From Bdellovibrionales bacterium (GTDB lineage: Bacteria; Bdellovibrionota; Bdellovibrionia; Bdellovibrionales; JAGQZY01), in assembly GCA_964230555.1 (NCBI GenBank), contig CAXRIX010000066.1, positions 903 to 64,902 on the forward strand: a stretch of DNA of 64,000 nucleotides. The letters run 5' to 3'. Below, in pieces: positions 5,694 to 61,119 of the stretch. The first letter of the stretch is position 1. Each line of letters begins with the position of its first letter. The notes under the pieces are model-generated. The model ran no database searches, was not told the origin of the DNA, and saw nothing but the letters and a program-made list of their open reading frames with translations. Made by a program: the position numbers and the translations under genes.

Positions 5694-7165
5694 GCGATAT
5701 TAAATCCTTGGCCATAGCCAATAGAGGAGAAGTGGCTGTACGAATCATCCGCGCCTGTCAGGAATTGGGTGTCGAGTCTGTTCTTCTTCACTCAAAAGCG
5801 GATATCAATACCCGTGCTTATCGCATGAGTGATCGACAAATTTGTATCGGTGATTCAGCGGTGGGAGAAAGCTATCTTTCAATCGAAAAAAATGTTGATG
5901 GTGTTTTGGCGTCCGGTGCTGATGCTGTCCATCCTGGCTTTGGGTTCCTTTCGGAAAATGCGAATTTTGCGCAAGCCTTGAAGGATAATAATATTCAATT
6001 TGTTGGGCCCAGCCCCGAAGCGATTCGGAAAATGGGCGACAAGATTGAAGCTAAAAAAATTATTGAGGCTGCCAACATACCAACAGTTCCTGGATACAAT
6101 GGCGATGATCAAAGTCTTGCGACCTTGAAAAAAGAAGCCGAAAAGATTGGCTTTCCGGTGATTGTCAAAGCCGCCGCCGGTGGCGGTGGGCGTGGAATGA
6201 AAGTCATCCAAAAAGCCAGTGAGGCTGAAGAGATGATTGATGCGGCCAAGCGAGAAGGCCTGAGTGCCTTTGGGAGTGAACAAGTATTCTTAGAAAAATA
6301 TCTGGATAAGGCCAAGCATATTGAGGTGCAGATATTTGGAGACCTCAGTGGCAATGTCGTCCATCTCTTTGAAAGAGAGTGTTCGGTTCAAAGACGTCAT
6401 CAAAAAATTGTTGAAGAAGCGGTTAGTGGCTCCATTTCAACCGATATCCGCCAAGGTATGACCGAAGCTGCGGTAAAGCTGGCAAAGGCGGTCAACTATG
6501 TAGGCGCTGGAACTGTGGAGTTTCTGGTGCAAGACGACGCCTTCTACTTTTTAGAGATGAACACTCGATTGCAAGTCGAGCATCCCGTAACCGAACTGGT
6601 TCTTGGTGTCGATCTTGTGAAGGCGCAAATACTCAACCAAATGAATCGTTTTTCCTGCTGGAACCAAGATCTTTTGGTACCACGTGGACATTCAATTGAA
6701 TGTCGCCTGTACGCAGAAGACCCTTTTAGTCAGGGTATTCCCTCGACTGGACTTATTGGGTTTCAACAATGGCCTGATGGCCCTGGCCGTCGATTTGATT
6801 TTGGTTATGAGGCCGGCGACGAAGTCACTCCCTTTTACGATTCAATGATGGCCAAGGTGATTGTTTGGGATGAAACGCGCCCGCGAGCCATTAAAAAGAT
6901 GTTAAAGACTTTAGATGACATCGTTCTGTTTGGGGTCAAATCCAATATTCCATTCTTAAAACAGATCTTACAACATCCTGAGTTTGTTGATGGCTCGTTC
7001 AACACCCAATTTATCAATCAGCATTTCGCGCAAGGGGCTCATCCTCTTGAGAATCAAGAAGAGTTAGAAAAAATTGGCGAACTTTGTTTTGATTCACTAG
7101 GTGAAGTGACCCAGGTTGCTGGGGCTCAGCCTTCACCGTTTTCTCGAAAGTGGAGCAATGTATGA
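5690..7165 (+). CDS. liuD: Biotin carboxylase subunit (N-terminal ~490 aa equivalent of the MCCase alpha chain)
   Basis: IANRGEVAVRIIRAC, ATP-grasp VIVKAAAGGGGRGMKV, EMNTRLQVEHPVTE. Start set to GTG 5690 (VSDIKSLAIANRGE), which overlaps the liuC stop as GTGA. The ORF track ATG at 5675 is an alternative. Confidence 0.9.
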   Translation: MSDIKSLAIANRGEVAVRIIRACQELGVESVLLHSKADINTRAYRMSDRQICIGDSAVGESYLSIEKNVDGVLASGADAVHPGFGFLSENANFAQALKDNNIQFVGPSPEAIRKMGDKIEAKKIIEAANIPTVPGYNGDDQSLATLKKEAEKIGFPVIVKAAAGGGGRGMKVIQKASEAEEMIDAAKREGLSAFGSEQVFLEKYLDKAKHIEVQIFGDLSGNVVHLFERECSVQRRHQKIVEEAVSGSISTDIRQGMTEAAVKLAKAVNYVGAGTVEFLVQDDAFYFLEMNTRLQVEHPVTELVLGVDLVKAQILNQMNRFSCWNQDLLVPRGHSIECRLYAEDPFSQGIPSTGLIGFQQWPDGPGRRFDFGYEAGDEVTPFYDSMMAKVIVWDETRPRAIKKMLKTLDDIVLFGVKSNIPFLKQILQHPEFVDGSFNTQFINQHFAQGAHPLENQEELEKIGELCFDSLGEVTQVAGAQPSPFSRKWSNV

Positions 7166-7542
7166 AAAAGTTGAATTTGACGATCGATGGTGAAGAGGTC
7201 GAAGTCTTAGCCCAAAAAATGGCCGGTAAAGTTTGGCTACACTATAAGGGGCAGACCTTTGCTTACACTCCAAAACAAAATCAAAAGCAGGGTCCTGCCG
7301 GAGGCGCAAACCAAGATCCCTCACAAATCGTCGCACCGATGCCTGGAAAAATTATTAAAATCTTCGTTGCAGAAGGAGACTCGGTGGCTGAAGGCGAAAC
7401 GGTTGTCGCCATGGAAGCGATGAAAATGGAATACAATTTAAAAGCAATGCAAAACATGAAATTAAAGTCTATCAAGTGTTCTGAAGGCGCCCAAGTGGGC
7501 CTTAGTGACCTGTTGGTGGAACTTGAGGAAGAGGATGCCTAA
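7162..7542 (+). CDS. Biotin carboxyl carrier (biotinyl/lipoyl domain) protein, the separate C-terminal part of MCCase alpha
   Basis: Biotinylation motif VVAMEAMKMEYNL. ATG 7162 overlaps the biotin carboxylase stop as ATGA (7162-7165). The track start at 7150 is GTG. Confidence 0.8.
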   Translation: MKKLNLTIDGEEVEVLAQKMAGKVWLHYKGQTFAYTPKQNQKQGPAGGANQDPSQIVAPMPGKIIKIFVAEGDSVAEGETVVAMEAMKMEYNLKAMQNMKLKSIKCSEGAQVGLSDLLVELEEEDA

Positions 7543-8440
7543 AGTCACTTTAGTAGAAATGGGATTGCGTGACGGACTTCAAAACGAAGCTGTTCACCTC
7601 TCGACCAACCAGCGATTTCAATTGCTGAAAAGATTTAGTGATGCTGGACTAAAACGAGTCGAGCTGGGTTCATTTGTTAGTCCCAAATGGGTGCCACAAA
7701 TGGCTGAAACGGGAAGTCTGGTAAAACGAGCTTTAAAAGCCAGAAAGCAAAACAGTCTGCATCAAAAGATGCAGTTTTCGGCCTTAGTTCCCAATATGAA
7801 AGGATTCGAAAATGCCCTAGCCTCAGGAATTGGCGAAATTTCGATTTTTGGTGCCGCCTCGGAAACTTTTTCCCAAAAAAATATCAATACGTCTATCAAG
7901 CAGAGCTTAAAAAACTTTGAAGAGGTTGTTAATGCGGCCAAGCAGGAGAAAAAGAAAGTACGAGCTTACTTGTCGACAGTTTTTGCTTGCCCGTATGAGG
8001 GAAAAGTTTCTGAATCCAAGGTTATCAAATTGATCGAAAAGTATTTGGCTATGGGCGTGTATGAGATTTCTTTGGGCGACACCATAGGGGTCGCTAGTCC
8101 CAAGCAAGTAAGAAGTTTGCTTAAGAAGCTTTCAGGTGTCACCCATCCTGGTCGGGTGGCAATGCACTTTCACGACACCCGAGGAACGGCGATTGCTAAT
8201 ATTTTAGCAAGTTTGGACTTGGGTTACCGAACCTTCGACACCAGCATTGGCGGCCTGGGGGGATGTCCGTATGCCCCCGGAGCGGCGGGTAATGTCGCCA
8301 CAGAAGACGTTGTATACATGCTTCATGAGATGGGATTGTCGACGGGCACCGATCTGCAAAAGTTAATCAAGACAACTTTATGGATGAATAAACAAGTGGG
8401 GCGCCAACTTCCCTCGAAGTTAAGTCTCACAGGTGCTTAG
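7535..8440 (+). CDS. liuE: Hydroxymethylglutaryl-CoA lyase
   Basis: VTLVEMGLRDGLQNE, HFHDTRGTAIANILASL, GGLGGCPYAPGAAGNVATEDV. Start trimmed to MPKVTLVE (ATG 7535), overlapping the BCCP gene stop by 8 nt. Confidence 0.9.
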   Translation: MPKVTLVEMGLRDGLQNEAVHLSTNQRFQLLKRFSDAGLKRVELGSFVSPKWVPQMAETGSLVKRALKARKQNSLHQKMQFSALVPNMKGFENALASGIGEISIFGAASETFSQKNINTSIKQSLKNFEEVVNAAKQEKKKVRAYLSTVFACPYEGKVSESKVIKLIEKYLAMGVYEISLGDTIGVASPKQVRSLLKKLSGVTHPGRVAMHFHDTRGTAIANILASLDLGYRTFDTSIGGLGGCPYAPGAAGNVATEDVVYMLHEMGLSTGTDLQKLIKTTLWMNKQVGRQLPSKLSLTGA

Positions 8441-54202: not shown

Positions 54203-56884
54203 ATGTCTGAGAATTTAAGTGATCGCTACAATCCCAATGATGTTGAAGACCGTATTTATAAATACTGGGAAGACCAGAATTATTTTGCGGCCGAGGACCA
54301 ATCCACGAAACGACCTTACAGTGTCATTTTACCACCCCCGAATGTGACCGGATTTTTGCATATGGGCCATGCCTTGGATCACACCATTCAGGATGTCTTG
54401 GTTCGGTGGAAGAGAATGCAGGGTTTCAATGCCATGTGGCTGCCGGGCTCGGATCACGCCGGTATCGCCACCCAGGCCGTCGTTGAAAAAGATTTACGCA
54501 AGCAAGGAAAAGATCGCTTAGAGATGGGCCGAGAAGCCTTTTTAGATGAAGTTTGGAAATGGAAGCAAACTTACGGCGATCGAATTTACTCGCAAATGAA
54601 ACGCCTGGGGGATTCGGTCGATTGGAAGCGAGAGACTTTCACATTGGATGCCGGTGTTTCTAAAGCGGTTCGCAAAGTGTTCGTACATTTGTATAAAAAA
54701 GGATGGCTTTATCAGGGTAAAAAGCTGGTGAACTGGTCTCCGCCTTTGCAATCAGCGATTTCTGACTTGGAAGTGGTTCATAAAGACACCAAAGGAAGCC
54801 TGTATCACTTGGCCTATCCGGTGGATGGAACAGATAAGACATTAATTATCGCCACCACCCGACCCGAAACTTATTTAGGAGATAGTGCAGTTTGTGTGCA
54901 TCCTGATGATGAGCGCTACCAAAAACTCATTGGCAAAACCATCACTCTTCCCGTGATTAATCGTCAAATTCCAATTATCGCTGACGAATACGTCGATCGC
55001 GAATTTGGTACTGGAGCATTAAAGGTGACGCCGGCCCATGATTTTAATGATTATGAACTGGGTAAGAAACATAACCTGGATTTCATAAACATTTTAAATG
55101 TTGATGGCACTCTGAATGAAAATTGTGGTCCCTGGCAAGGCTTAAAAACTCAAGAGGCTCGTAAAAAAATTGTTGAAGAGTTTGAAGACAAAAACATCAT
55201 TGTCAAAATCGAACCCCATCAACATGCGGTTGGCTACTGCGACCGTACAGGTGCCATCGTTGAGCCCTTTTTAAGTAAGCAGTGGTTTGTAAAAACCAAA
55301 GACTTATCAACGCCGGCTCGCCACGTTGTCGAAAATGAAACTATCCAATTTGTTCCGGAGCAGTGGACCAAAACCTATCTACATTGGATGAACATCATCG
55401 AAGATTGGTGTGTGTCGCGCCAGCTTTGGTGGGGGCACAGGATTCCAGCCTGGTATTGCGATGATTGTGATCAAGTGACGGTGTCGGAAGACGACCCCAG
55501 TCAGTGCGAAGGCTGTGGTGGAAAGAATATTCATCAAGATGAAGATGTTTTGGACACATGGTTCAGTTCGGGTCTTTGGCCTTTTAGTACCATGGGCTGG
55601 CCTCAGGATACAGAGGCTCAAAAAACCTTTTACCCAACATCTGTTTTAGTAACCGGTCACGACATCATCTTCTTTTGGGTGGCTCGAATGATCATGATGG
55701 GTCTTGAGATGAAAGGGGATGTACCGTTTCGAAAAGTTTATATTCATGGACTGATCCGTGATTCTCAAGGCCGAAAAATGTCGAAAAGTTTAGGCAACTC
55801 CATTGATCCGGTGGAAATGATCGAAGAGTATGGCGCCGACGCTCTTCGATTCACTCTGATGTCACAAATGGCAACAGGCAAGGACCTTAAGTTTTCGGTG
55901 CAAAGACTTGAAGGCTATCGCAATTTTATGAATAAAATTTGGAACGCCACACGCTTTTCGCTTTCTAATATGGAAGGCTTCAAGGCGCCTGCCGAAGGGA
56001 CTGAGGCCACGGTCAGTCTGTCGCAGTTGACGACGGCCGATCAATGGTTGATTTACCAAACAGGCTTGGTTGAAAAAGAAGTGAACCAATATCTTGAGGA
56101 AATGCGCTTTTCCGATGCGGCCAATCGAATCTATTCTTTCACTTGGCATGAGTTCTGCGATTGGTACTTAGAGTTTTCTAAGCCTGTGCTTTATGGAGAA
56201 GACCTTAAGCAAAAGCAAGTCACTCAATTGGTGTTGGCTCAAACACTCAATCGAATCGTTCGGTTGCTGCATCCGTTTGCGCCGTTTATTTCTGAGGAAA
56301 TTTATCAGAAGCTTCCTATAAAAGGCGAGGCTTGTATTGTTGATCATTACCCCGAATACGATAAGGACAAAACTTGGTTGGGGCTTGGTAGTGAAGAGGC
56401 TTCATTTGAAATGGAACTTGTGAAAGAGGTGATCACAGCCATCCGCAATATTCGTGGGGAAAACAAGATTAAGCCTGGTGAAAAATTTGATGTTTGGTTG
56501 ACTCCTAAAGACGATAAGTCACAAAAAATCCTAGGTAATAACAAATCCGAGATCATTCGTTTGGCGACTCTCAAAGAGTGCTCAATTTCAGAAAGATCGT
56601 CCCTTAAAAAATGTGCGGTGGCGCCGATTCGTCTTGGCGACTCAGAGGTCGACGTTGTCATTCCTTTGGAGGGTCTTGTCGATTTGGACAAAGAGGTCTC
56701 GCGTCTTAAAAAATTGATTGAAAAGCAAGAAAAGGACATTCAGAAAATCAACGGCAAGTTAAATAACGAGCGCTTCTTAGCCAATGCCCCCGAAGATGTA
56801 GTGGAGGCTGATAAGCAACTTTTGGCTAGCATTACTTCAAAAGTCGATGAGATGCGACAGTCTCTGTTGAGACTGTCGGAATAA
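54203..56884 (+). CDS. valS: Valine-tRNA ligase
   Basis: PPPNVTGFLHMGHAL (HIGH), KMSKSLGN (KMSKS), and a C-terminal coiled coil. 893 aa. Confidence 0.95.
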   Translation: MSENLSDRYNPNDVEDRIYKYWEDQNYFAAEDQSTKRPYSVILPPPNVTGFLHMGHALDHTIQDVLVRWKRMQGFNAMWLPGSDHAGIATQAVVEKDLRKQGKDRLEMGREAFLDEVWKWKQTYGDRIYSQMKRLGDSVDWKRETFTLDAGVSKAVRKVFVHLYKKGWLYQGKKLVNWSPPLQSAISDLEVVHKDTKGSLYHLAYPVDGTDKTLIIATTRPETYLGDSAVCVHPDDERYQKLIGKTITLPVINRQIPIIADEYVDREFGTGALKVTPAHDFNDYELGKKHNLDFINILNVDGTLNENCGPWQGLKTQEARKKIVEEFEDKNIIVKIEPHQHAVGYCDRTGAIVEPFLSKQWFVKTKDLSTPARHVVENETIQFVPEQWTKTYLHWMNIIEDWCVSRQLWWGHRIPAWYCDDCDQVTVSEDDPSQCEGCGGKNIHQDEDVLDTWFSSGLWPFSTMGWPQDTEAQKTFYPTSVLVTGHDIIFFWVARMIMMGLEMKGDVPFRKVYIHGLIRDSQGRKMSKSLGNSIDPVEMIEEYGADALRFTLMSQMATGKDLKFSVQRLEGYRNFMNKIWNATRFSLSNMEGFKAPAEGTEATVSLSQLTTADQWLIYQTGLVEKEVNQYLEEMRFSDAANRIYSFTWHEFCDWYLEFSKPVLYGEDLKQKQVTQLVLAQTLNRIVRLLHPFAPFISEEIYQKLPIKGEACIVDHYPEYDKDKTWLGLGSEEASFEMELVKEVITAIRNIRGENKIKPGEKFDVWLTPKDDKSQKILGNNKSEIIRLATLKECSISERSSLKKCAVAPIRLGDSEVDVVIPLEGLVDLDKEVSRLKKLIEKQEKDIQKINGKLNNERFLANAPEDVVEADKQLLASITSKVDEMRQSLLRLSE

Positions 56885-56894
56885 CACGAATGAC

Positions 56895-57377
56895 TTAGTT
56901 GAAATCTTGGTCGGTGGGCGTGTTCATCACAATCAATTGGTGAAGTTCACCTTCGACTCCAAGAGTTCTAGCAATCGCTGTGTATTGTTTACGGCTTTGT
57001 AAGACCTTCGCACGAAAACATCCATTAATTTCAAACATCGCATCGCTGTCGATGCCCAGTCGATTAAGGCCAAGAACCAACTCGGTGAGAGCTTTCTTTT
57101 CTAAGTCATTGCGGGTGTTCTTGCCGTCATCACAGACAAAGCGGTAGGCCTTACCCTGAGCCAGTTCAAAGGCTCTTCTCTCAGGTGTGTTCTCATCCTG
57201 AATTAAATGTTTTTTATGAAACTCTTGCTTGTCGATGAAATCTTCCTGTTTTTCACTGATTTCAGTCAAAAGATTCTCTGCGACTTCACAAGACCCACAG
57301 TTTTGAGTTTTCTGTGACCAGGCCGCACAACTGAGGATAATAAAAATTCCTAATAATAATTGAGCTAAGTTTTTCAT
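56895..57377 (-). CDS. Small lipoprotein of unknown function (candidate immunity/partner protein of the upstream gene)
   Basis: MKNLAQLLLGIFIILSCAAW is lipobox-like. ATGA overlap (57374-57377) with the upstream Cys-rich gene. Confidence 0.6.
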   Translation of the reverse strand: MKNLAQLLLGIFIILSCAAWSQKTQNCGSCEVAENLLTEISEKQEDFIDKQEFHKKHLIQDENTPERRAFELAQGKAYRFVCDDGKNTRNDLEKKALTELVLGLNRLGIDSDAMFEINGCFRAKVLQSRKQYTAIARTLGVEGELHQLIVMNTPTDQDFN

Positions 57378-58207
57378 CTTGCCGTTCCTCCTCCGCGCCA
57401 GACATAACAGCCGCGCAGTTGTCGACGATTACTTCCAAGGCGTTGATCGATGGGGAGTGAAGATTGAACTCCTGCGTGCCACATACCATCGGTTCCTAAA
57501 AATTCAATGTGTCCATGTCGATCTCCACCACTGTAGTTGGGATTACCTTGTCGGTAACCTCGGTAAACTCGAATCACACCAGGACGATTACAGGCTGACA
57601 TATCAAGATCAAAACCTTTGTTTTCAAGACACCCGAAGTAGTCGTAGGCGCTACCACCACAATGAAACTGTCGGTCGCCCACGCGTTGTCCGAACTCACG
57701 AGCCATACAAGCTAAGGCTGTTCGAACGCCGACGGCACAGTAACCGGCACCACTGCTGCGGCCGCGACTGCGAGCGTAGCTGTAAGCCTGGCCGCGCCCA
57801 TAGCCAGCGCATCGGGTGAGAGCGGCAGCGTATTGACACGCCCCCGGTCCTCTTGTCATGGGGTAAGTGCCCCTTGCCGGAGCGATGGCTGCTTCTCTTT
57901 CTTCGTCAATATCGGGAAGAGCCGGTAAGTTTTCACATCGGCGCCACGAATTGTTGCTGAGGTCGTTACGATCGGGGCGACAATAGCCTGCAGAAAACTG
58001 ACGCATTAAAAATCGACAGTTGTATTGAACTCGGCTATGGCAGCAGTATCGGGAAACACGAGAACCACAGGTGCCATCATCAAAGCGTACGTTAGGATCA
58101 ATATCATTACTTCTCATAAAAAATGGAAGTGTGGTTTCGGCCAGCGCTGGGCTGGTCAAAGCCAGGAATCCGAACATCATTAATATAGATATAAGTATTT
58201 TTCTCAT
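57374..58207 (-). CDS. Sec-exported Cys-rich protein, possibly a papain-fold (CHAP/NlpC-P60/Tae4-like) amidase
   Basis: Signal peptide MRKILISILMMFGFLALTSPALA. 14 Cys. Candidate nucleophile in GYCAVGVRTAL (C157) and GVIRVYRG..GHIEFLG (H233), in the order typical of papain-like cell-wall amidases. Visibly GC-richer than its flanks. Confidence 0.4.
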   Translation of the reverse strand: MRKILISILMMFGFLALTSPALAETTLPFFMRSNDIDPNVRFDDGTCGSRVSRYCCHSRVQYNCRFLMRQFSAGYCRPDRNDLSNNSWRRCENLPALPDIDEEREAAIAPARGTYPMTRGPGACQYAAALTRCAGYGRGQAYSYARSRGRSSGAGYCAVGVRTALACMAREFGQRVGDRQFHCGGSAYDYFGCLENKGFDLDMSACNRPGVIRVYRGYRQGNPNYSGGDRHGHIEFLGTDGMWHAGVQSSLPIDQRLGSNRRQLRGCYVWRGGGTAR

Positions 58208-58479
58208 AAAACCTTCCTGTTCCTATGTAGAGCAAGGTCTATTCCGTCTCAGATCGAAACAATCTCAGTTTGAGACCCCAAACCGCTGTCATTTTCAAGA
58301 GGACTGGAAAATTGTTGGCCAGCTGTCAAAGTCTTCCGAGGCCTTAAACCAACGGAATATTCAGGTTTTAGGGTCAATGACTCATTATGAGTAAGCGATA
58401 AGTCCATTATTTTCAGTAGCTTAGGAATTAAGCATAAAAAACTACGATCATGTATAGACATATATAAATATATATCATA

Positions 58480-58493
58480 GTATATTTATATAC
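58480..58493. promoter_or_regulatory. Perfect palindrome GTATAT-TT-ATATAC inside a ~45-nt AT-only block upstream of pspC
   Basis: Read directly. It lies in the 354-nt divergent intergenic region, 69 nt upstream of the pspC ATG. Confidence 0.3.
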
Positions 58494-58561
58494 AGCGATA
58501 GGGTTAAAACGTCGCTGAAACATCAAACGGGCGCCAAACAGGGTGTCGAAGGAGAACAAAA

Positions 58562-58945
58562 ATGAAATCAATGCGTTTACGAAATCAATGGACTCGCTCC
58601 AGCGACGGATGGGTGGCTGGTGTTTGTCAGGGACTTGGTGAACGACTCGATCTCAACCCAGCCATGGTTCGTCTTGTCTGGTTTTTGAGTGTTCTATTTT
58701 TTGGCGTAGGACTTTTACTTTATTTTGTCTGCGCATTCGTTATGCCAGTCGAGGGTAATGAAGAAAGCGCTTTGCAACCCAAGCTGTTGGGTGTTTGTTA
58801 CCGTCTTTCTGAAAAACTCGATATCGATGTTGTACCTGTTCGTATTTTCACCGTGTTTGCCTTTCTTGGTTCCGCAGGCGTGGTTTTGCTTGCCTATTTG
58901 TTGCTGCACATTTTGCTTCCTCGCGAAAGTCGTTTTCAAGAATAA
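58562..58945 (+). CDS. pspC: PspC-domain membrane protein (two PspC-like repeats)
   Basis: RSSDGWVAGVCQGLGERLDLNPAMVRLVWFL plus TM, then a second copy LLGVCYRLSEKLDIDVVPVRIFTVFAFL plus TM. Confidence 0.8.
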   Translation: MKSMRLRNQWTRSSDGWVAGVCQGLGERLDLNPAMVRLVWFLSVLFFGVGLLLYFVCAFVMPVEGNEESALQPKLLGVCYRLSEKLDIDVVPVRIFTVFAFLGSAGVVLLAYLLLHILLPRESRFQE

Positions 58946-59086
58946 ACCAAGTTGTACGTGAGCTCGCATCTTTAAATAGAGATTGCGAGCCTTCCGAATA
59001 TTTTAAATTTGGACGTTCATAGTAAAGGCTCTTGCAGCCGGTCGGCGTCCTTACATTCTTAAAGCAATTAAACTAAAGGAGTTATT

Positions 59087-59812
59087 ATGAATATTTTCGA
59101 TCGTATTGGAGACGCTATCCGTTCCCTTTTTAAAAATGTATTTGCGAGTGGAACATCGGACCCTGCAGCTGCGGCTCGGGCGATGATTAGTAAGCAGAAG
59201 CGCAGTCAAAAGCGACTGAAAGACAGTTTGACGGATCTTATTTTTCAACGCAAGAAGTTTGAGGCCCAGTTAGAAAAACTTGAAAACAGAAGATTGGGAA
59301 TGAAGCAAGATATTGAAGTTGCAGCCTATCAGGACCGTGACGATTTAGCGATCCGCTTAATGGAAGAGCTCGATTTAATGGTCAAAGAGATTGAAGAAAC
59401 TCAAACCAACCTGCAGCTTGTTGAAAATGAAATTGAGACGGCTAAACAGGTTGAGATCGAACTTAATAGACAAGTGGAAAAATCGGAATCTCAATTGGCG
59501 ATTTTGGTCTCACGAAGTCAATCGGTGCAAATGCGCGAGGATTTGCAAAACCAATTCTCTAAAATTCATGATGAGATCAGTCACCTGAAACCCGGCCTGA
59601 ATGTAGTTGAAGAGAGTATTTTAAAGTTAGAATCACGCCTAGAAAATCTCCAAGGTCCCAACGAGGACTGGAAAAAAGAGGTCATGAAAATGCGTAAGCA
59701 ACGAACCGATCACTTTCGTCGTGGTCGCCTTCAACAACTGAAGCAGCAACTTAAGGGACGACAGTTAAGCGGACAGGTGATTGTACCTGAAGTTGTCAGA
59801 ACCACTCATTAA
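59087..59812 (+). CDS. pspA: PspA/IM30-family protein
   Basis: MNIFDRIGDAIRSLFKN N-terminal amphipathic helix, followed by ~200 aa coiled coil colinear with PspA. Confidence 0.85.
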   Translation: MNIFDRIGDAIRSLFKNVFASGTSDPAAAARAMISKQKRSQKRLKDSLTDLIFQRKKFEAQLEKLENRRLGMKQDIEVAAYQDRDDLAIRLMEELDLMVKEIEETQTNLQLVENEIETAKQVEIELNRQVEKSESQLAILVSRSQSVQMREDLQNQFSKIHDEISHLKPGLNVVEESILKLESRLENLQGPNEDWKKEVMKMRKQRTDHFRRGRLQQLKQQLKGRQLSGQVIVPEVVRTTH

Positions 59813-59828
59813 GGCAAAGGAGATTATA

Positions 59829-60344
59829 ATGTCGAAACGGAAATTAAGAGATCTGACAGCGGTGTTTTTTGTGGGCCTTTTTCTAATGACCTGGGAGCCA
59901 GTTTTTATCTGGCTCTTGGTTGGCGGGCTGGTGCTACTGCAGCCGGACTCTCGTGAAGATTCGAATGAAGAAAAAACGTCATCAAAAAACCTTCTGCAAT
60001 TGATTCGAGAGGACGCTCGGCGATTTGGGGTGAAAATGCCCCAGCGTCAATCGCGTCGAAGCCTTTTGCTGCAAATATACGGTCAGTATGAAGAAGCAAA
60101 ACGGCAATATCCCCATTTGAAGTGTGAATACCGCGAGGTGATTAACGAAATGTGGACCTCATTGGCAGCAGATGCCAATCCTCATCATTGGAATCAGGTT
60201 CTAACATCAGTGATTGCTGACTGGCCGACCCGGGGAACAACGGCTCCTTCACAGGGTGTGAAAGAAAAACTACAAAGGGTTAAAGAGTTGAGTCAGCAGT
60301 GGGATGAGGCTAAAAGAGAGGCTATGGGAGGTGCCAATGTTTAG
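59829..60344 (+). CDS. Membrane-anchored protein of unknown function in the psp cluster
   Basis: AAGGAG lies 7 nt upstream of ATG 59829. Two short TM segments (TAVFFVGLFLM, FIWLLVGGLVLL), then a charged soluble domain. Confidence 0.6.
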   Translation: MSKRKLRDLTAVFFVGLFLMTWEPVFIWLLVGGLVLLQPDSREDSNEEKTSSKNLLQLIREDARRFGVKMPQRQSRRSLLLQIYGQYEEAKRQYPHLKCEYREVINEMWTSLAADANPHHWNQVLTSVIADWPTRGTTAPSQGVKEKLQRVKELSQQWDEAKREAMGGANV

Positions 60345-61119
60345 ACAACACTGGGACGAATTCGAAAAAAATGTCAGCAGCATCGCCGATGATTTCAAGG
60401 GATTGATTTTTGACAAATTCAAGCAGTCGAAAACAAAAGTTGAAAAAATCGTAACCTCTGACCCAAATCAAGCCAAAGAAGCCTTTGTGAAATGGGGGAA
60501 AGAGTATGTCGACAAGGTGAAGGTCAAGGCTGAAAGTGAAAAGGCACAAAAAGCCAAAGAGAATTTTTTCACTTTATTGCGCAACCTTGGTGTCAACGAA
60601 GCGGTTATTATCGAAACCTTTCAGCAGAACAAAAAGGAGCTTCTTGATCCCTTAATTGGAGAAACGGTGGCTATTGTCGCGTTGGTGTTGGGTTGGAGTC
60701 AGAAAGATAAAGAGGCTTTCTCGCAAGCCCTAGGAGAAATTGGTGTGGCCGGTGTTTTTGCTGCCAAACCCTTTCTTTGCTTAATTGCGATTTGTGGATT
60801 GGCCTATGGTTACCAGGAAAACTTTCATCCCGAAGCTTTTAAAAAAGGTGGTGTTCTTGGGTTGGCTGGGATCACGGCGGTGGCATTGTCACCCGGTGGC
60901 TTTGTTGGTTTACTTTCAGCCATTGTGACGATTCTTTATCTTAATAAACGGCTACAGGTCGATCGTCCGATTGAGGCGCAATTAAAAGAGTTGTTTCAAC
61001 ATATTAAAAATGGTGGATTTTTTAAAGAGGTGCGTGGAGCCTGGAGGAACTTTGAGAGCTTTCTCTCCAAACTCTTTCAACGCCCACAGGACGATGCTAT
61101 AATGAACCCCAATCCCTAG
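60337..61119 (+). CDS. Membrane protein of unknown function in the psp cluster
   Basis: GGGAGG lies 5 nt upstream of ATG 60337, and the gene overlaps the previous stop by 8 nt. Charged helical N-terminus, then 3-4 Gly/Ala-rich TM helices. Confidence 0.6.
   Translation: MFRQHWDEFEKNVSSIADDFKGLIFDKFKQSKTKVEKIVTSDPNQAKEAFVKWGKEYVDKVKVKAESEKAQKAKENFFTLLRNLGVNEAVIIETFQQNKKELLDPLIGETVAIVALVLGWSQKDKEAFSQALGEIGVAGVFAAKPFLCLIAICGLAYGYQENFHPEAFKKGGVLGLAGITAVALSPGGFVGLLSAIVTILYLNKRLQVDRPIEAQLKELFQHIKNGGFFKEVRGAWRNFESFLSKLFQRPQDDAIMNPNP

Follow-up and report, generated by a model that had tools for sequence, protein, structure and literature searches.

We describe a pair of overlapping genes, referred to here as A and B, in a 64,000-nt stretch of DNA from a Bdellovibrionales bacterium (JAGQZY01; assembly GCA_964230555.1, contig CAXRIX010000066.1, positions 903-64,902), the whole of which we call the window. 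We propose that A encodes a Tae3-like peptidoglycan amidase exported through the general secretory (Sec) pathway, and that B, which would be co-translated with it, encodes a periplasmic inhibitor of this enzyme, a reading to which we give a probability of about 50%. According to the list of open reading frames (ORFs), gene A (57374..58207, minus strand) codes for a 277-aa Cys-rich protein with a predicted Sec signal and a Cys-His domain resembling that of Tae3, and gene B (56895..57377, minus strand) for a 160-aa protein that is predicted to be exported and all-alpha, our candidate inhibitor.

Protein A begins with a Sec-type signal peptide (residues 1-23, MRKILISILMMFGFLALTSPALA; 58139..58207, minus strand) that, read by eye, would be cut by signal peptidase I at an AxA site, after ..TSPALA and before ETT. 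Its 14 Cys are located at positions 47, 55, 56, 64, 76, 91, 124, 133, 157, 167, 183, 193, 206 and 267. An N-terminal Cys-rich module (residues ~24-105; 57893..58138, minus strand) precedes the catalytic core (residues 118-272; 57392..57856, minus strand), in which C157 lies in the motif GYCAVGVRTAL and H233 in GDRHGHIEFLG. On the basis of conservation, a structural model and alignment with Tae3, C157 (codon 57737..57739, minus strand) is the predicted nucleophile and H233 (codon 57509..57511, minus strand) the predicted general base; E235 (codon 57503..57505, minus strand) is an acidic residue that is specific to the family and stands two positions after the His. The signal, the number of Cys and the two motifs had been reported in the first-pass annotation of this DNA, and all of them are found in the minus-strand ORF. 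That annotation had also been unable to place either protein in a named family, and searching Pfam, NCBIfam and the PDB with one sequence at a time likewise gave us no match for either.

Full-length homologues of A fall into eight clusters, all from metagenome-assembled genomes (MAGs) of Bdellovibrionales or Pseudobdellovibrionaceae, and are 44-52% identical to it (99% within its own cluster). In this close family, E24 and T26 are invariant, as are the six Cys of the N-terminal module (47, 55, 56, 64, 76 and 91), a module that is confined to the close family and takes the place of the wall-binding SH3b modules or other N-termini present in more distant relatives. All seven close homologues have exactly 13 Cys in the mature protein, and the A of the window has one more, C124. 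Given that 13 is an odd number, one would expect a free thiol, presumably that of C157, in addition to six disulfides. Over 87 non-redundant core sequences, C157 is present in all 87, H233 in 85, and E235 and R262 in 84 each, with G210 and G232 at 86 each. H244 is less constant, being found in 55 of the 87, and remote branches have an S-D pair instead, with an Asp two positions later in 20 sequences. C206 and C267 occur together in 65 cores, are both missing from 21 and are found one without the other in a single core, a pattern of joint presence and absence that fits a disulfide between them.

The AlphaFold2 (AF2) model of A has a mean predicted local distance difference test (pLDDT) score of 78, which rises above 90 over residues ~120-270 and is low to moderate for the Cys-rich module. 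C157 opens a helix (157-171) and H233 opens a strand (233-237); a Cys at the start of a helix combined with a His at the start of a strand corresponds to the layout of papain-fold hydrolases. In YkuD L,D-transpeptidases and sortases, the His precedes the Cys, and we discarded both layouts for this reason. A Foldseek search of the model against BFVD retrieved a cyanophage protein annotated with a "lysin domain" (E=1.6e-3) and, as its second match, a 1159-aa protein of Campylobacter phage CP220 (E=7.5e-3, probability 0.99), along with three CHAP-annotated phage proteins (probability 0.23-0.54). Residues ~740-860 of the CP220 protein read ..STGSCAKYVRSYLMAAG..YGF..GDISI..YGHIAIWNG..WVSDF. Tested as a single pre-specified target, this segment matched a hidden Markov model (HMM) of the A core at 19 bits (E=5e-8) with its Cys and His in register; the match came from a local HMM search run without filters, and a search with the A3 profile had found nothing in the CP220 record. 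The same segment scored 23.7 bits against the CHAP model of Pfam, for which the cut-off is 26 bits, and E=3e-10 against PDB chain 4HZ9_A. This chain is the T6SS (type VI secretion system) amidase effector Tae3 of Ralstonia pickettii, which was solved with its immunity protein Tai3, has a catalytic C23/H81 dyad and is grouped with CHAP amidases (PMC11796386, PMC6099711, PMC4832377). At the level of sequence, the CP220 lysin-like domain bridges the A family and Tae3.

The link to Tae3 was also obtained directly. We searched the whole PDB with a 23-sequence alignment of the core that spans both branches of the family (A6), and the top match was 4HZ9_A, with E=8.2e-5 and 25.8 bits. The alignment runs from position 16 to 119 of the profile and from residue 7 to 95 of the chain, includes a [WY]-x-S-D-[FY] motif and places the catalytic C23 and H81 of Tae3 opposite C157 and H233. 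When the A-core HMM was compared directly with the Tae3 segment, the score was 22.2 bits, with 9.6 bits for the best of 500 shuffled sequences. Taken together, the direct match, the catalytic residues in register and the independent bridge provided by the phage protein lead us to think that the core of A is very probably homologous to Tae3 and CHAP. The first-pass annotation had suggested an amidase of the CHAP, NlpC/P60 or Tae4 type; remote homology to the Tae family and the conserved dyad are in line with this suggestion, but the relative is Tae3 and not Tae4. It had also stated that its reading would fall if no papain-like fold were predicted, and this came close to happening: Foldseek gave nothing significant in the PDB, and the relationship came to light solely by way of the phage intermediate and the core-only profile. 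Among the other searches, the phage family listed for the CP220 lysin domain and annotated as "endolysin" (phrog_38472) matched the Cys-helix region of two members weakly. A profile of the full-length protein (A3) gave only noise against the PDB, namely an exoribonuclease; tblastn of A found nothing in 50,697 phage records, and tblastn of A and P0028 against phages and plasmids gave nothing useful. Matches to phrog_1794, annotated as "amidase", were set aside because they are located on the SH3 module and not on the catalytic domain.

Delivery by the T6SS is the defining feature of Tae3 proper, and A was found to lack it. We looked for the sheath protein TssC/VipB (PF05943) in 41 related genomes, including that of the window, and it was found in none of them, with a positive result for the E. 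coli control. Given the Sec signal of A and the lack of TssC/VipB, and with it of a T6SS, in these genomes, this protein appears not to be a T6SS effector, and we read it as a Tae3-like domain that would reach the periplasm through the general secretory pathway.

The domain is much more widespread than A itself. An exhaustive phmmer search against 1.84 billion representative sequences yielded 61 relatives, which have in common only the part corresponding to residues ~105-270 of A and whose N-termini are varied. SH3 (SH3_3) domains were identified in 9 of 57 aligned members, as well as in loci L051 and L015, and further members from the phylum have two SH3 domains. Within the Bdellovibrionota, a profile search of 401 genomes found the core domain in 78 genomes, distributed over 32 of 203 genera. 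Canonical NlpC/P60 and CHAP domains are both rarer, being found in 29 and 7, respectively, of 301 genomes of the phylum; neither NlpC/P60 (PF00877) nor CHAP (PF05257) was found in the genome of the window, and the CHAP profile matched none of the sampled genomes of the same order, Bdellovibrionales. Full-length A, for its part, was found in 5 of 61 related genomes and, within its own genus, in 4 of 13. Most genomes sampled from the genus identified as Bdellovibrio carry a remote class of ~385-404 aa. The family has no name in Pfam, NCBIfam or PHROGs, and all members named by their source, including some from Bdellovibrio and B. bacteriovorus, are labelled "hypothetical protein". A scan of metagenome loci contributed only two loci, and a second, word-indexed search for homologues added nothing.

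P0040 (3621 aa) and P0046 (744 aa), which came up in the exhaustive search, were rejected as spurious, their weak matches having been amplified by repeats, with no Cys aligned and with BppL_N and cadherin-like domains. A member labelled Calothrix was not accepted as a sign of spread beyond the phylum because it sits on a 3.2-kb contig with 60% GC and is probably a binning artefact. This contig is locus L030 (89-2679), in which an A-like gene (P0020) is followed by a divergent A-like paralogue (P0070, ..GGICAYGVRTT..GHVTVKGDDG..) and then by a partner with a CxxC motif, so that two enzymes are associated with one partner. At another locus, L015, from a Bdellovibrionales MAG, a gene for an exported 300-aa protein (7047-7949, plus strand) comes right after the A-like/B-like pair. 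It consists of two repeats of the form ..GKSAKD..(Q/R)GF(T/E)NLL..IP(I/Y)GS(V/I)(L/F)VLD..(K/Q)(R/-)HGHV(V/T)(I/V)KC.. and has no Pfam match, and the repeats look like tandem, possibly degenerate, Tae3-like domains.

The association between A and B is visible across the phylum. In the window, the TGA stop codon of A and the ATG of B overlap in the tetranucleotide ATGA (57374..57377, minus strand), as had been noted earlier and as can be read from the sequence, and a Shine-Dalgarno sequence for B (GGAGGAGGA; 57386..57394, minus strand) lies inside the 3′ end of gene A, with an 8-nt spacer to the ATG. We located the A-domain ORF by HMM at 40 non-redundant loci and then looked at the ORF that comes after it in the same direction, judging the signal peptides of A and of the partners by a heuristic and by eye (a basic segment, a hydrophobic segment and an AxA site). 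At 38 of the 40 loci, the ORF directly downstream encodes a protein with a signal peptide. These partners are 127-207 aa long (two are cut by the end of a contig) and start between -47 and +21 nt from the stop codon of A, the commonest junction being an overlap of 1 or 4 nt. L030 is one of the two exceptions, as the second A-like paralogue stands in between and the partner then follows the paralogue. Given that the same order and junction recur at 38 of 40 loci across the phylum, the A-then-B arrangement is far beyond what chance would produce.

An all-against-all phmmer comparison joined 30 of the 38 partners into one connected family. At four independent homologous loci, the start of the B homologue overlaps or abuts the stop of A, and at one of these, L007, the flanking genes differ. 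In the 61 related genomes, B is found in exactly the five that have full-length A, and it is the neighbour of A in every case. The sequence of B changes faster than that of A: when two A proteins are 60-80% identical (~68%), their B proteins are on average ~43% identical, and when A is at 40-60% (47%), B is on average at 20%. Taken over the same genome pairs, the identities of A and B are correlated (Spearman 0.30, p=1e-13). The two proteins also differ in charge, with median isoelectric points (pI) of 9.7 for the core of A as against 5.7 for B; the two loci with an acidic A have a basic B. In a single case, a remote A/B pair (L029, 2952-3956) lies directly downstream of a gene of the SCO1/SenC family, a thiol-disulfide and copper chaperone family, which is of interest in view of the CxxC of the partners.

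As for B itself, the AF2 model (pLDDT 84, predicted template modelling score 0.74) is a bundle of six to seven helices; B has no Pfam match, and Foldseek against the PDB returned only generic helical bundles, with no Tai3 among the top 50 rows. Four Cys are invariant in the B proteins of the close family (C27, C30, C82 and C120), of which C27 and C30 form a CxxC (C27-G-S-C30; 57288..57299, minus strand) at the start of the first mature helix, residues 30-56 in the model. A CxxC placed only a few residues from where cleavage is predicted recurs in ~20 of the 38 partners, some of which have no other Cys; in one sub-branch, it is replaced by LxxL, and many remote partners are free of Cys. We considered a tight link between this CxxC and the C206-C267 disulfide of A and dropped it, as the two do not co-vary. 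B had been labelled a lipobox protein, and in the window its I-L-S-C17 does pass the relaxed PROSITE rule, but an alternative A-W-S site cut before Q is also present, and the lipobox ([LVI][ASTVI][GAS]C) is not kept among five close homologues. L007 and L009 have no Cys at this position and carry AQA sites for signal peptidase I, and L002 (-1 = I) and L005 (-1 = T) fail the PROSITE rule. The remote partners that were read have AxA-type sites and no lipobox. Because the lipobox Cys is not conserved, the label "lipoprotein" seems doubtful, and, over the family as a whole, B looks like a soluble periplasmic protein.

These elements can be combined into a mechanism. A would be a cysteine amidase with the papain fold (CHAP superfamily), in which C157, at the N-terminus of its helix, acts as the nucleophile and H233, at the start of its beta-strand, as the general base; the third residue, which might orient the catalytic His, would be H244 (in remote branches, Asp), E235 or both, and R262 would probably bind the carboxylate of the stem peptide. 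Most likely, A cuts stem peptides or cross-links of peptidoglycan. The DD-cross-link between meso-diaminopimelic acid (mDAP) and D-Ala, which Tae2 and Tae3 representatives cut (PMC3852654), would be our first guess for the bond, but bond specificity is not confidently transferable given the large evolutionary distance between A and Tae3. Disulfides probably stabilise the enzyme, and its N-terminal module, in place of which relatives have SH3b, probably guides it to peptidoglycan. It would enter the producer's own periplasm via Sec. Translational coupling would lead to near-equimolar synthesis of B, and this acidic, helical protein could bind the basic A and keep its active site blocked until A is handed over, presumably to the prey. 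Since A would pass through the producer's own periplasm, B is best explained as a putative stoichiometric inhibitor, a role that fits the near-universal coupling, the predicted export of both proteins, the faster divergence of B, the opposite charges and a small helical bundle with conserved Cys in the manner of Tai4 and Rap. Of these elements, the organisation of the genes, the conservation, the homology to Tae3 with its catalytic residues in register, the phylum-wide coupling and the lack of a T6SS are observed, and the substrate, the binding of B to A, the inhibition and any use in predation are deduced.

Several of our results weigh against this interpretation. When the full-length model of A was compared with the PDB by Foldseek, nothing was significant, Tae3 was not retrieved and the list was dominated by superoxide dismutases as noise, the best relevant row being RipB with a probability of 0.20. 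In the same PDB search in which A6 found Tae3, ribosomal protein S8 was matched at E=0.003 over a shorter stretch. Such weak matches to S8 were repeated (E=0.003-0.4) over the segment ..L..aGFv.d...G.v.V.., and they are almost certainly a chance resemblance; they indicate, nevertheless, that E-values of A6 near 1e-3 are unreliable and that the match to Tae3 is only ~40-fold better. Comparisons by hhalign of the A core with profiles built from the phylum for CHAP (5 sequences, P=0.022) and for NlpC/P60 (4 and then 22 sequences, P=0.12, probability 0.3-0.5%) were not significant, in a test of low power in which even CHAP and NlpC/P60, compared with each other as a positive control, gave no more than 23%; in both alignments, the His strand was in register. 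No Pfam model matched any of the ~70 members of the enzyme family that were scanned. The CHAP gathering score (26 bits) was reached by no member, the best being E=0.022 in 1 of 57, with no match in ten remote members. Furthermore, the B-family profile matched nothing in the PDB, where the Tai3 chains of 4HZ9 and 4HZB were included. Finally, no orphan B gene was seen in the 61 related genomes, which fits an obligate subunit just as well as an immunity protein.

The last observation also suits a reading, in our opinion unlikely, in which B is a folding or redox helper in the periplasm, with a CxxC that keeps C157 reduced or resolves wrong disulfides, or else an activating subunit. The oxidoreductase DsbG reportedly protects L,D-transpeptidases with a single Cys, and A, in an oxidising compartment, would have to form six disulfides while keeping one thiol free, so that a helper with a CxxC at its mature N-terminus, recurrent in ~20 of 38 partners and strictly co-occurring with the enzyme, would make sense. 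Nevertheless, B is predicted to be all-alpha and not a thioredoxin fold, and it has no oxidoreductase match. The sub-branch with LxxL keeps the pairing, which suggests that this position plays a packing or structural role, and many remote partners have no Cys at all. In addition, the CxxC is not tied to the disulfides of A, as partners at L051 and L056 have it next to enzymes that lack C206 and C267, and fast divergence combined with opposite charge is more typical of a binder or inhibitor. Quite unlikely, in turn, is a housekeeping role in which A remodels the sacculus of its own cell with B as a regulatory subunit, as in MepS-NlpI or in amidase-activator pairs, and without any part in attacking prey. 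Such a role would be understandable in a genome with no canonical NlpC/P60 or CHAP, where A could be the cell's own endopeptidase, the more so as the ~385-404-aa class looks core-like in the genus Bdellovibrio and the pair lies between valS and the psp cluster and not within any obvious predation island. What speaks against it is the patchy distribution of full-length A (5 of 61 related genomes; 4 of 13 within its genus) and of the domain (78 of 401), the fact that the homologues are offensive enzymes (a T6SS effector and a phage virion protein), and the expansion of paralogues and the tandem A-A′-B arrangement at L030, which look like the diversification of an arsenal.

The substrate is another point on which our proposal might fail, given that the papain fold supports many chemistries. 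A could be a protease, transglutaminase, deamidase or acyltransferase acting on proteins of the envelope or the prey, with B as an inhibitor or a substrate adaptor; the invariant E235 and R262 are not among the features of Tae3, and a similarity to Tae3 as remote as ~25 bits does not allow specificity to be transferred. We consider this improbable, however, because the SH3b fusions in relatives, the basic pI of the core, which is typical of wall-binding enzymes, and the nearest relatives (Tae3, CHAP-annotated phage proteins and, as a trace, RipB), all of them wall hydrolases, argue for peptidoglycan.

If A is indeed a Sec-exported Tae3-like amidase held in check by B, a broader proposal may be put forward, which we advance only tentatively: the pair would be a member of a T6SS-independent effector-inhibitor module found throughout the predatory Bdellovibrionota, in which a lineage of Tae3-like cysteine amidases, common to T6SS toxins and phage virion lysins, was recruited to the Sec pathway and acquired a new, co-evolving family of helical inhibitors. 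In a bolder version, the N-terminal CxxC of B would cap C157 through a mixed disulfide, forming a lock that could be released by redox. In terms of classification, we would assign the catalytic domain, from its sequence, to a branch of the Tae3/CHAP lineage that would depend on Sec and had not been named before, with a new family of partners in predatory bacteria. The ankyrin protein Bd3460 is the sole self-protection protein characterised in predatory bacteria, and the proposed module would be a second system of self-protection, and a far more widespread one. The domain, which has no name, occurs in roughly one in five of the Bdellovibrionota genomes that were sampled. It would also place one catalytic domain in three settings, namely T6SS toxins, phage virion lysins and Sec-exported proteins of predators, and it offers a new, small candidate family of inhibitors for a cysteine wall hydrolase.

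The genomic setting of the pair, between valS and the psp envelope-stress cluster, deserves some comment. Upstream of A, an AT-rich intergenic region of 354 nt (58208..58561), where GC falls to 0.36, separates it from the divergent pspC-pspA and is a probable promoter region. It contains one sigma-70-like site (58507-58479, minus strand), which is no more than expected by chance. Beyond it (58562-61119) lie the pspC-pspA cluster and two or three unannotated genes. The divergent PspC next to gene A is also kept at three homologous loci (L002, L005 and L009), and at L007 only two unannotated genes of similar size (263 and 167 aa) are left near the pair. On the other side, 17 nt past the stop codon of B, the final codons of valS, a convergent gene with its end at 56884, contain a perfect 10-bp inverted repeat (CGACAGTCTC-AACA-GAGACTGTCG; 56855-56878). 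This repeat might act as a terminator hairpin, either shared or bidirectional; there is no T-run directly behind it, and the terminator scan did not list it. The GC content of gene A (0.516, with a local peak of 0.59 over 57600-58050) is higher than that of gene B (0.42) and of the window (0.449), which may reflect a composition rich in Arg, Gly, Ala and Cys rather than a foreign origin.

Comparison with known systems helps to delimit what is shared and what is new in this pair. The closest counterpart of the enzyme is Tae3 with its partner Tai3 (4HZ9/4HZB). A and Tae3 have in common the skeleton G-x-C-x-[YR]-x-V-[RK], SA-[KI]-D, GF, GH and [WY]-x-S/H-D/x-[FY], and in both systems the gene that comes after that of the enzyme encodes a periplasmic protein. 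Tae3, however, is ~120 aa long, has no signal peptide and is delivered by the T6SS, whereas A starts with a Sec signal and carries further modules at its N-terminus. The distance between Cys and His is 58 residues in Tae3 and 76 in A, A has additional predicted disulfides, Tae3 has an Ala at the position of E235, and B shows no similarity to Tai3.

As in the model of A, in CHAP (PF05257) and the CP220 lysin domain a Cys at the N-terminus of a helix is followed by a His on a beta-strand, but the A family remains below the CHAP gathering score and the hhalign comparison is not significant. With NlpC/P60 (PF00877; MepS, RipB), the similarity lies in the catalytic layout at the level of the superfamily and in the trace Foldseek match to RipB, and hhalign sets PGV.RVY and GH.E of A against GDL.FF and H.G.Y, but A has no Pfam match and lacks the DCSG motif. 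In the Tae4-Tai4 and Ssp-Rap pairs of Salmonella, Enterobacter and Serratia, the enzyme is a Cys-His-Asp amidase with the papain fold, and the spacing of 11 residues between H126 and D137 of Tae4 equals that between H233 and H244 of A. Tai4 and Rap, which are exported by Sec, are small bundles of alpha-helices that depend on a conserved disulfide and act by steric obstruction of the effector's active site (PMC3695027, PMC3852654), and B is like them in kind, being small, all-alpha and, by prediction, exported, with conserved Cys. Nevertheless, neither sequence searches nor Foldseek connected A with Tae4 or B with Tai4 and Rap, and Tae4 is delivered by the T6SS.

One further candidate for the family comes from the literature. 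In B. bacteriovorus HD100, Bd2744 is reported to be an uncharacterised protein with a "CHAP domain"; it is induced more than 4-fold (log2 fold change 2.48) in the phase of exit from the prey and was not flagged with a secretion signal (PMC12546842). Since none of the genomes sampled from the genus Bdellovibrio gave a match to canonical CHAP, Bd2744 may be a member of the A family. A functional parallel, already drawn in the first-pass annotation, is that of Bd3460: this ankyrin protein protects Bdellovibrio from Bd3459 and Bd0816, two DD-endopeptidases exported through Sec, by covering their active sites (PMC4686830). Both cases come from the same phylum and combine a Sec-exported, wall-cutting enzyme with an adjacent gene for a small protein with a signal peptide, here on the evidence of genes and predictions. 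The proteins themselves are different, given that Bd3459 is a serine enzyme of the PBP4 (penicillin-binding protein 4) type whereas A would be a cysteine enzyme with a papain fold, and that Bd3460 is built of ankyrin repeats whereas B is helical, non-ankyrin and unrelated to it. The authors of that study proposed that finding pairs of genes for enzymes and their inhibitors would reveal key predatory enzymes (PMC4686830), and A and B may be such a pair.

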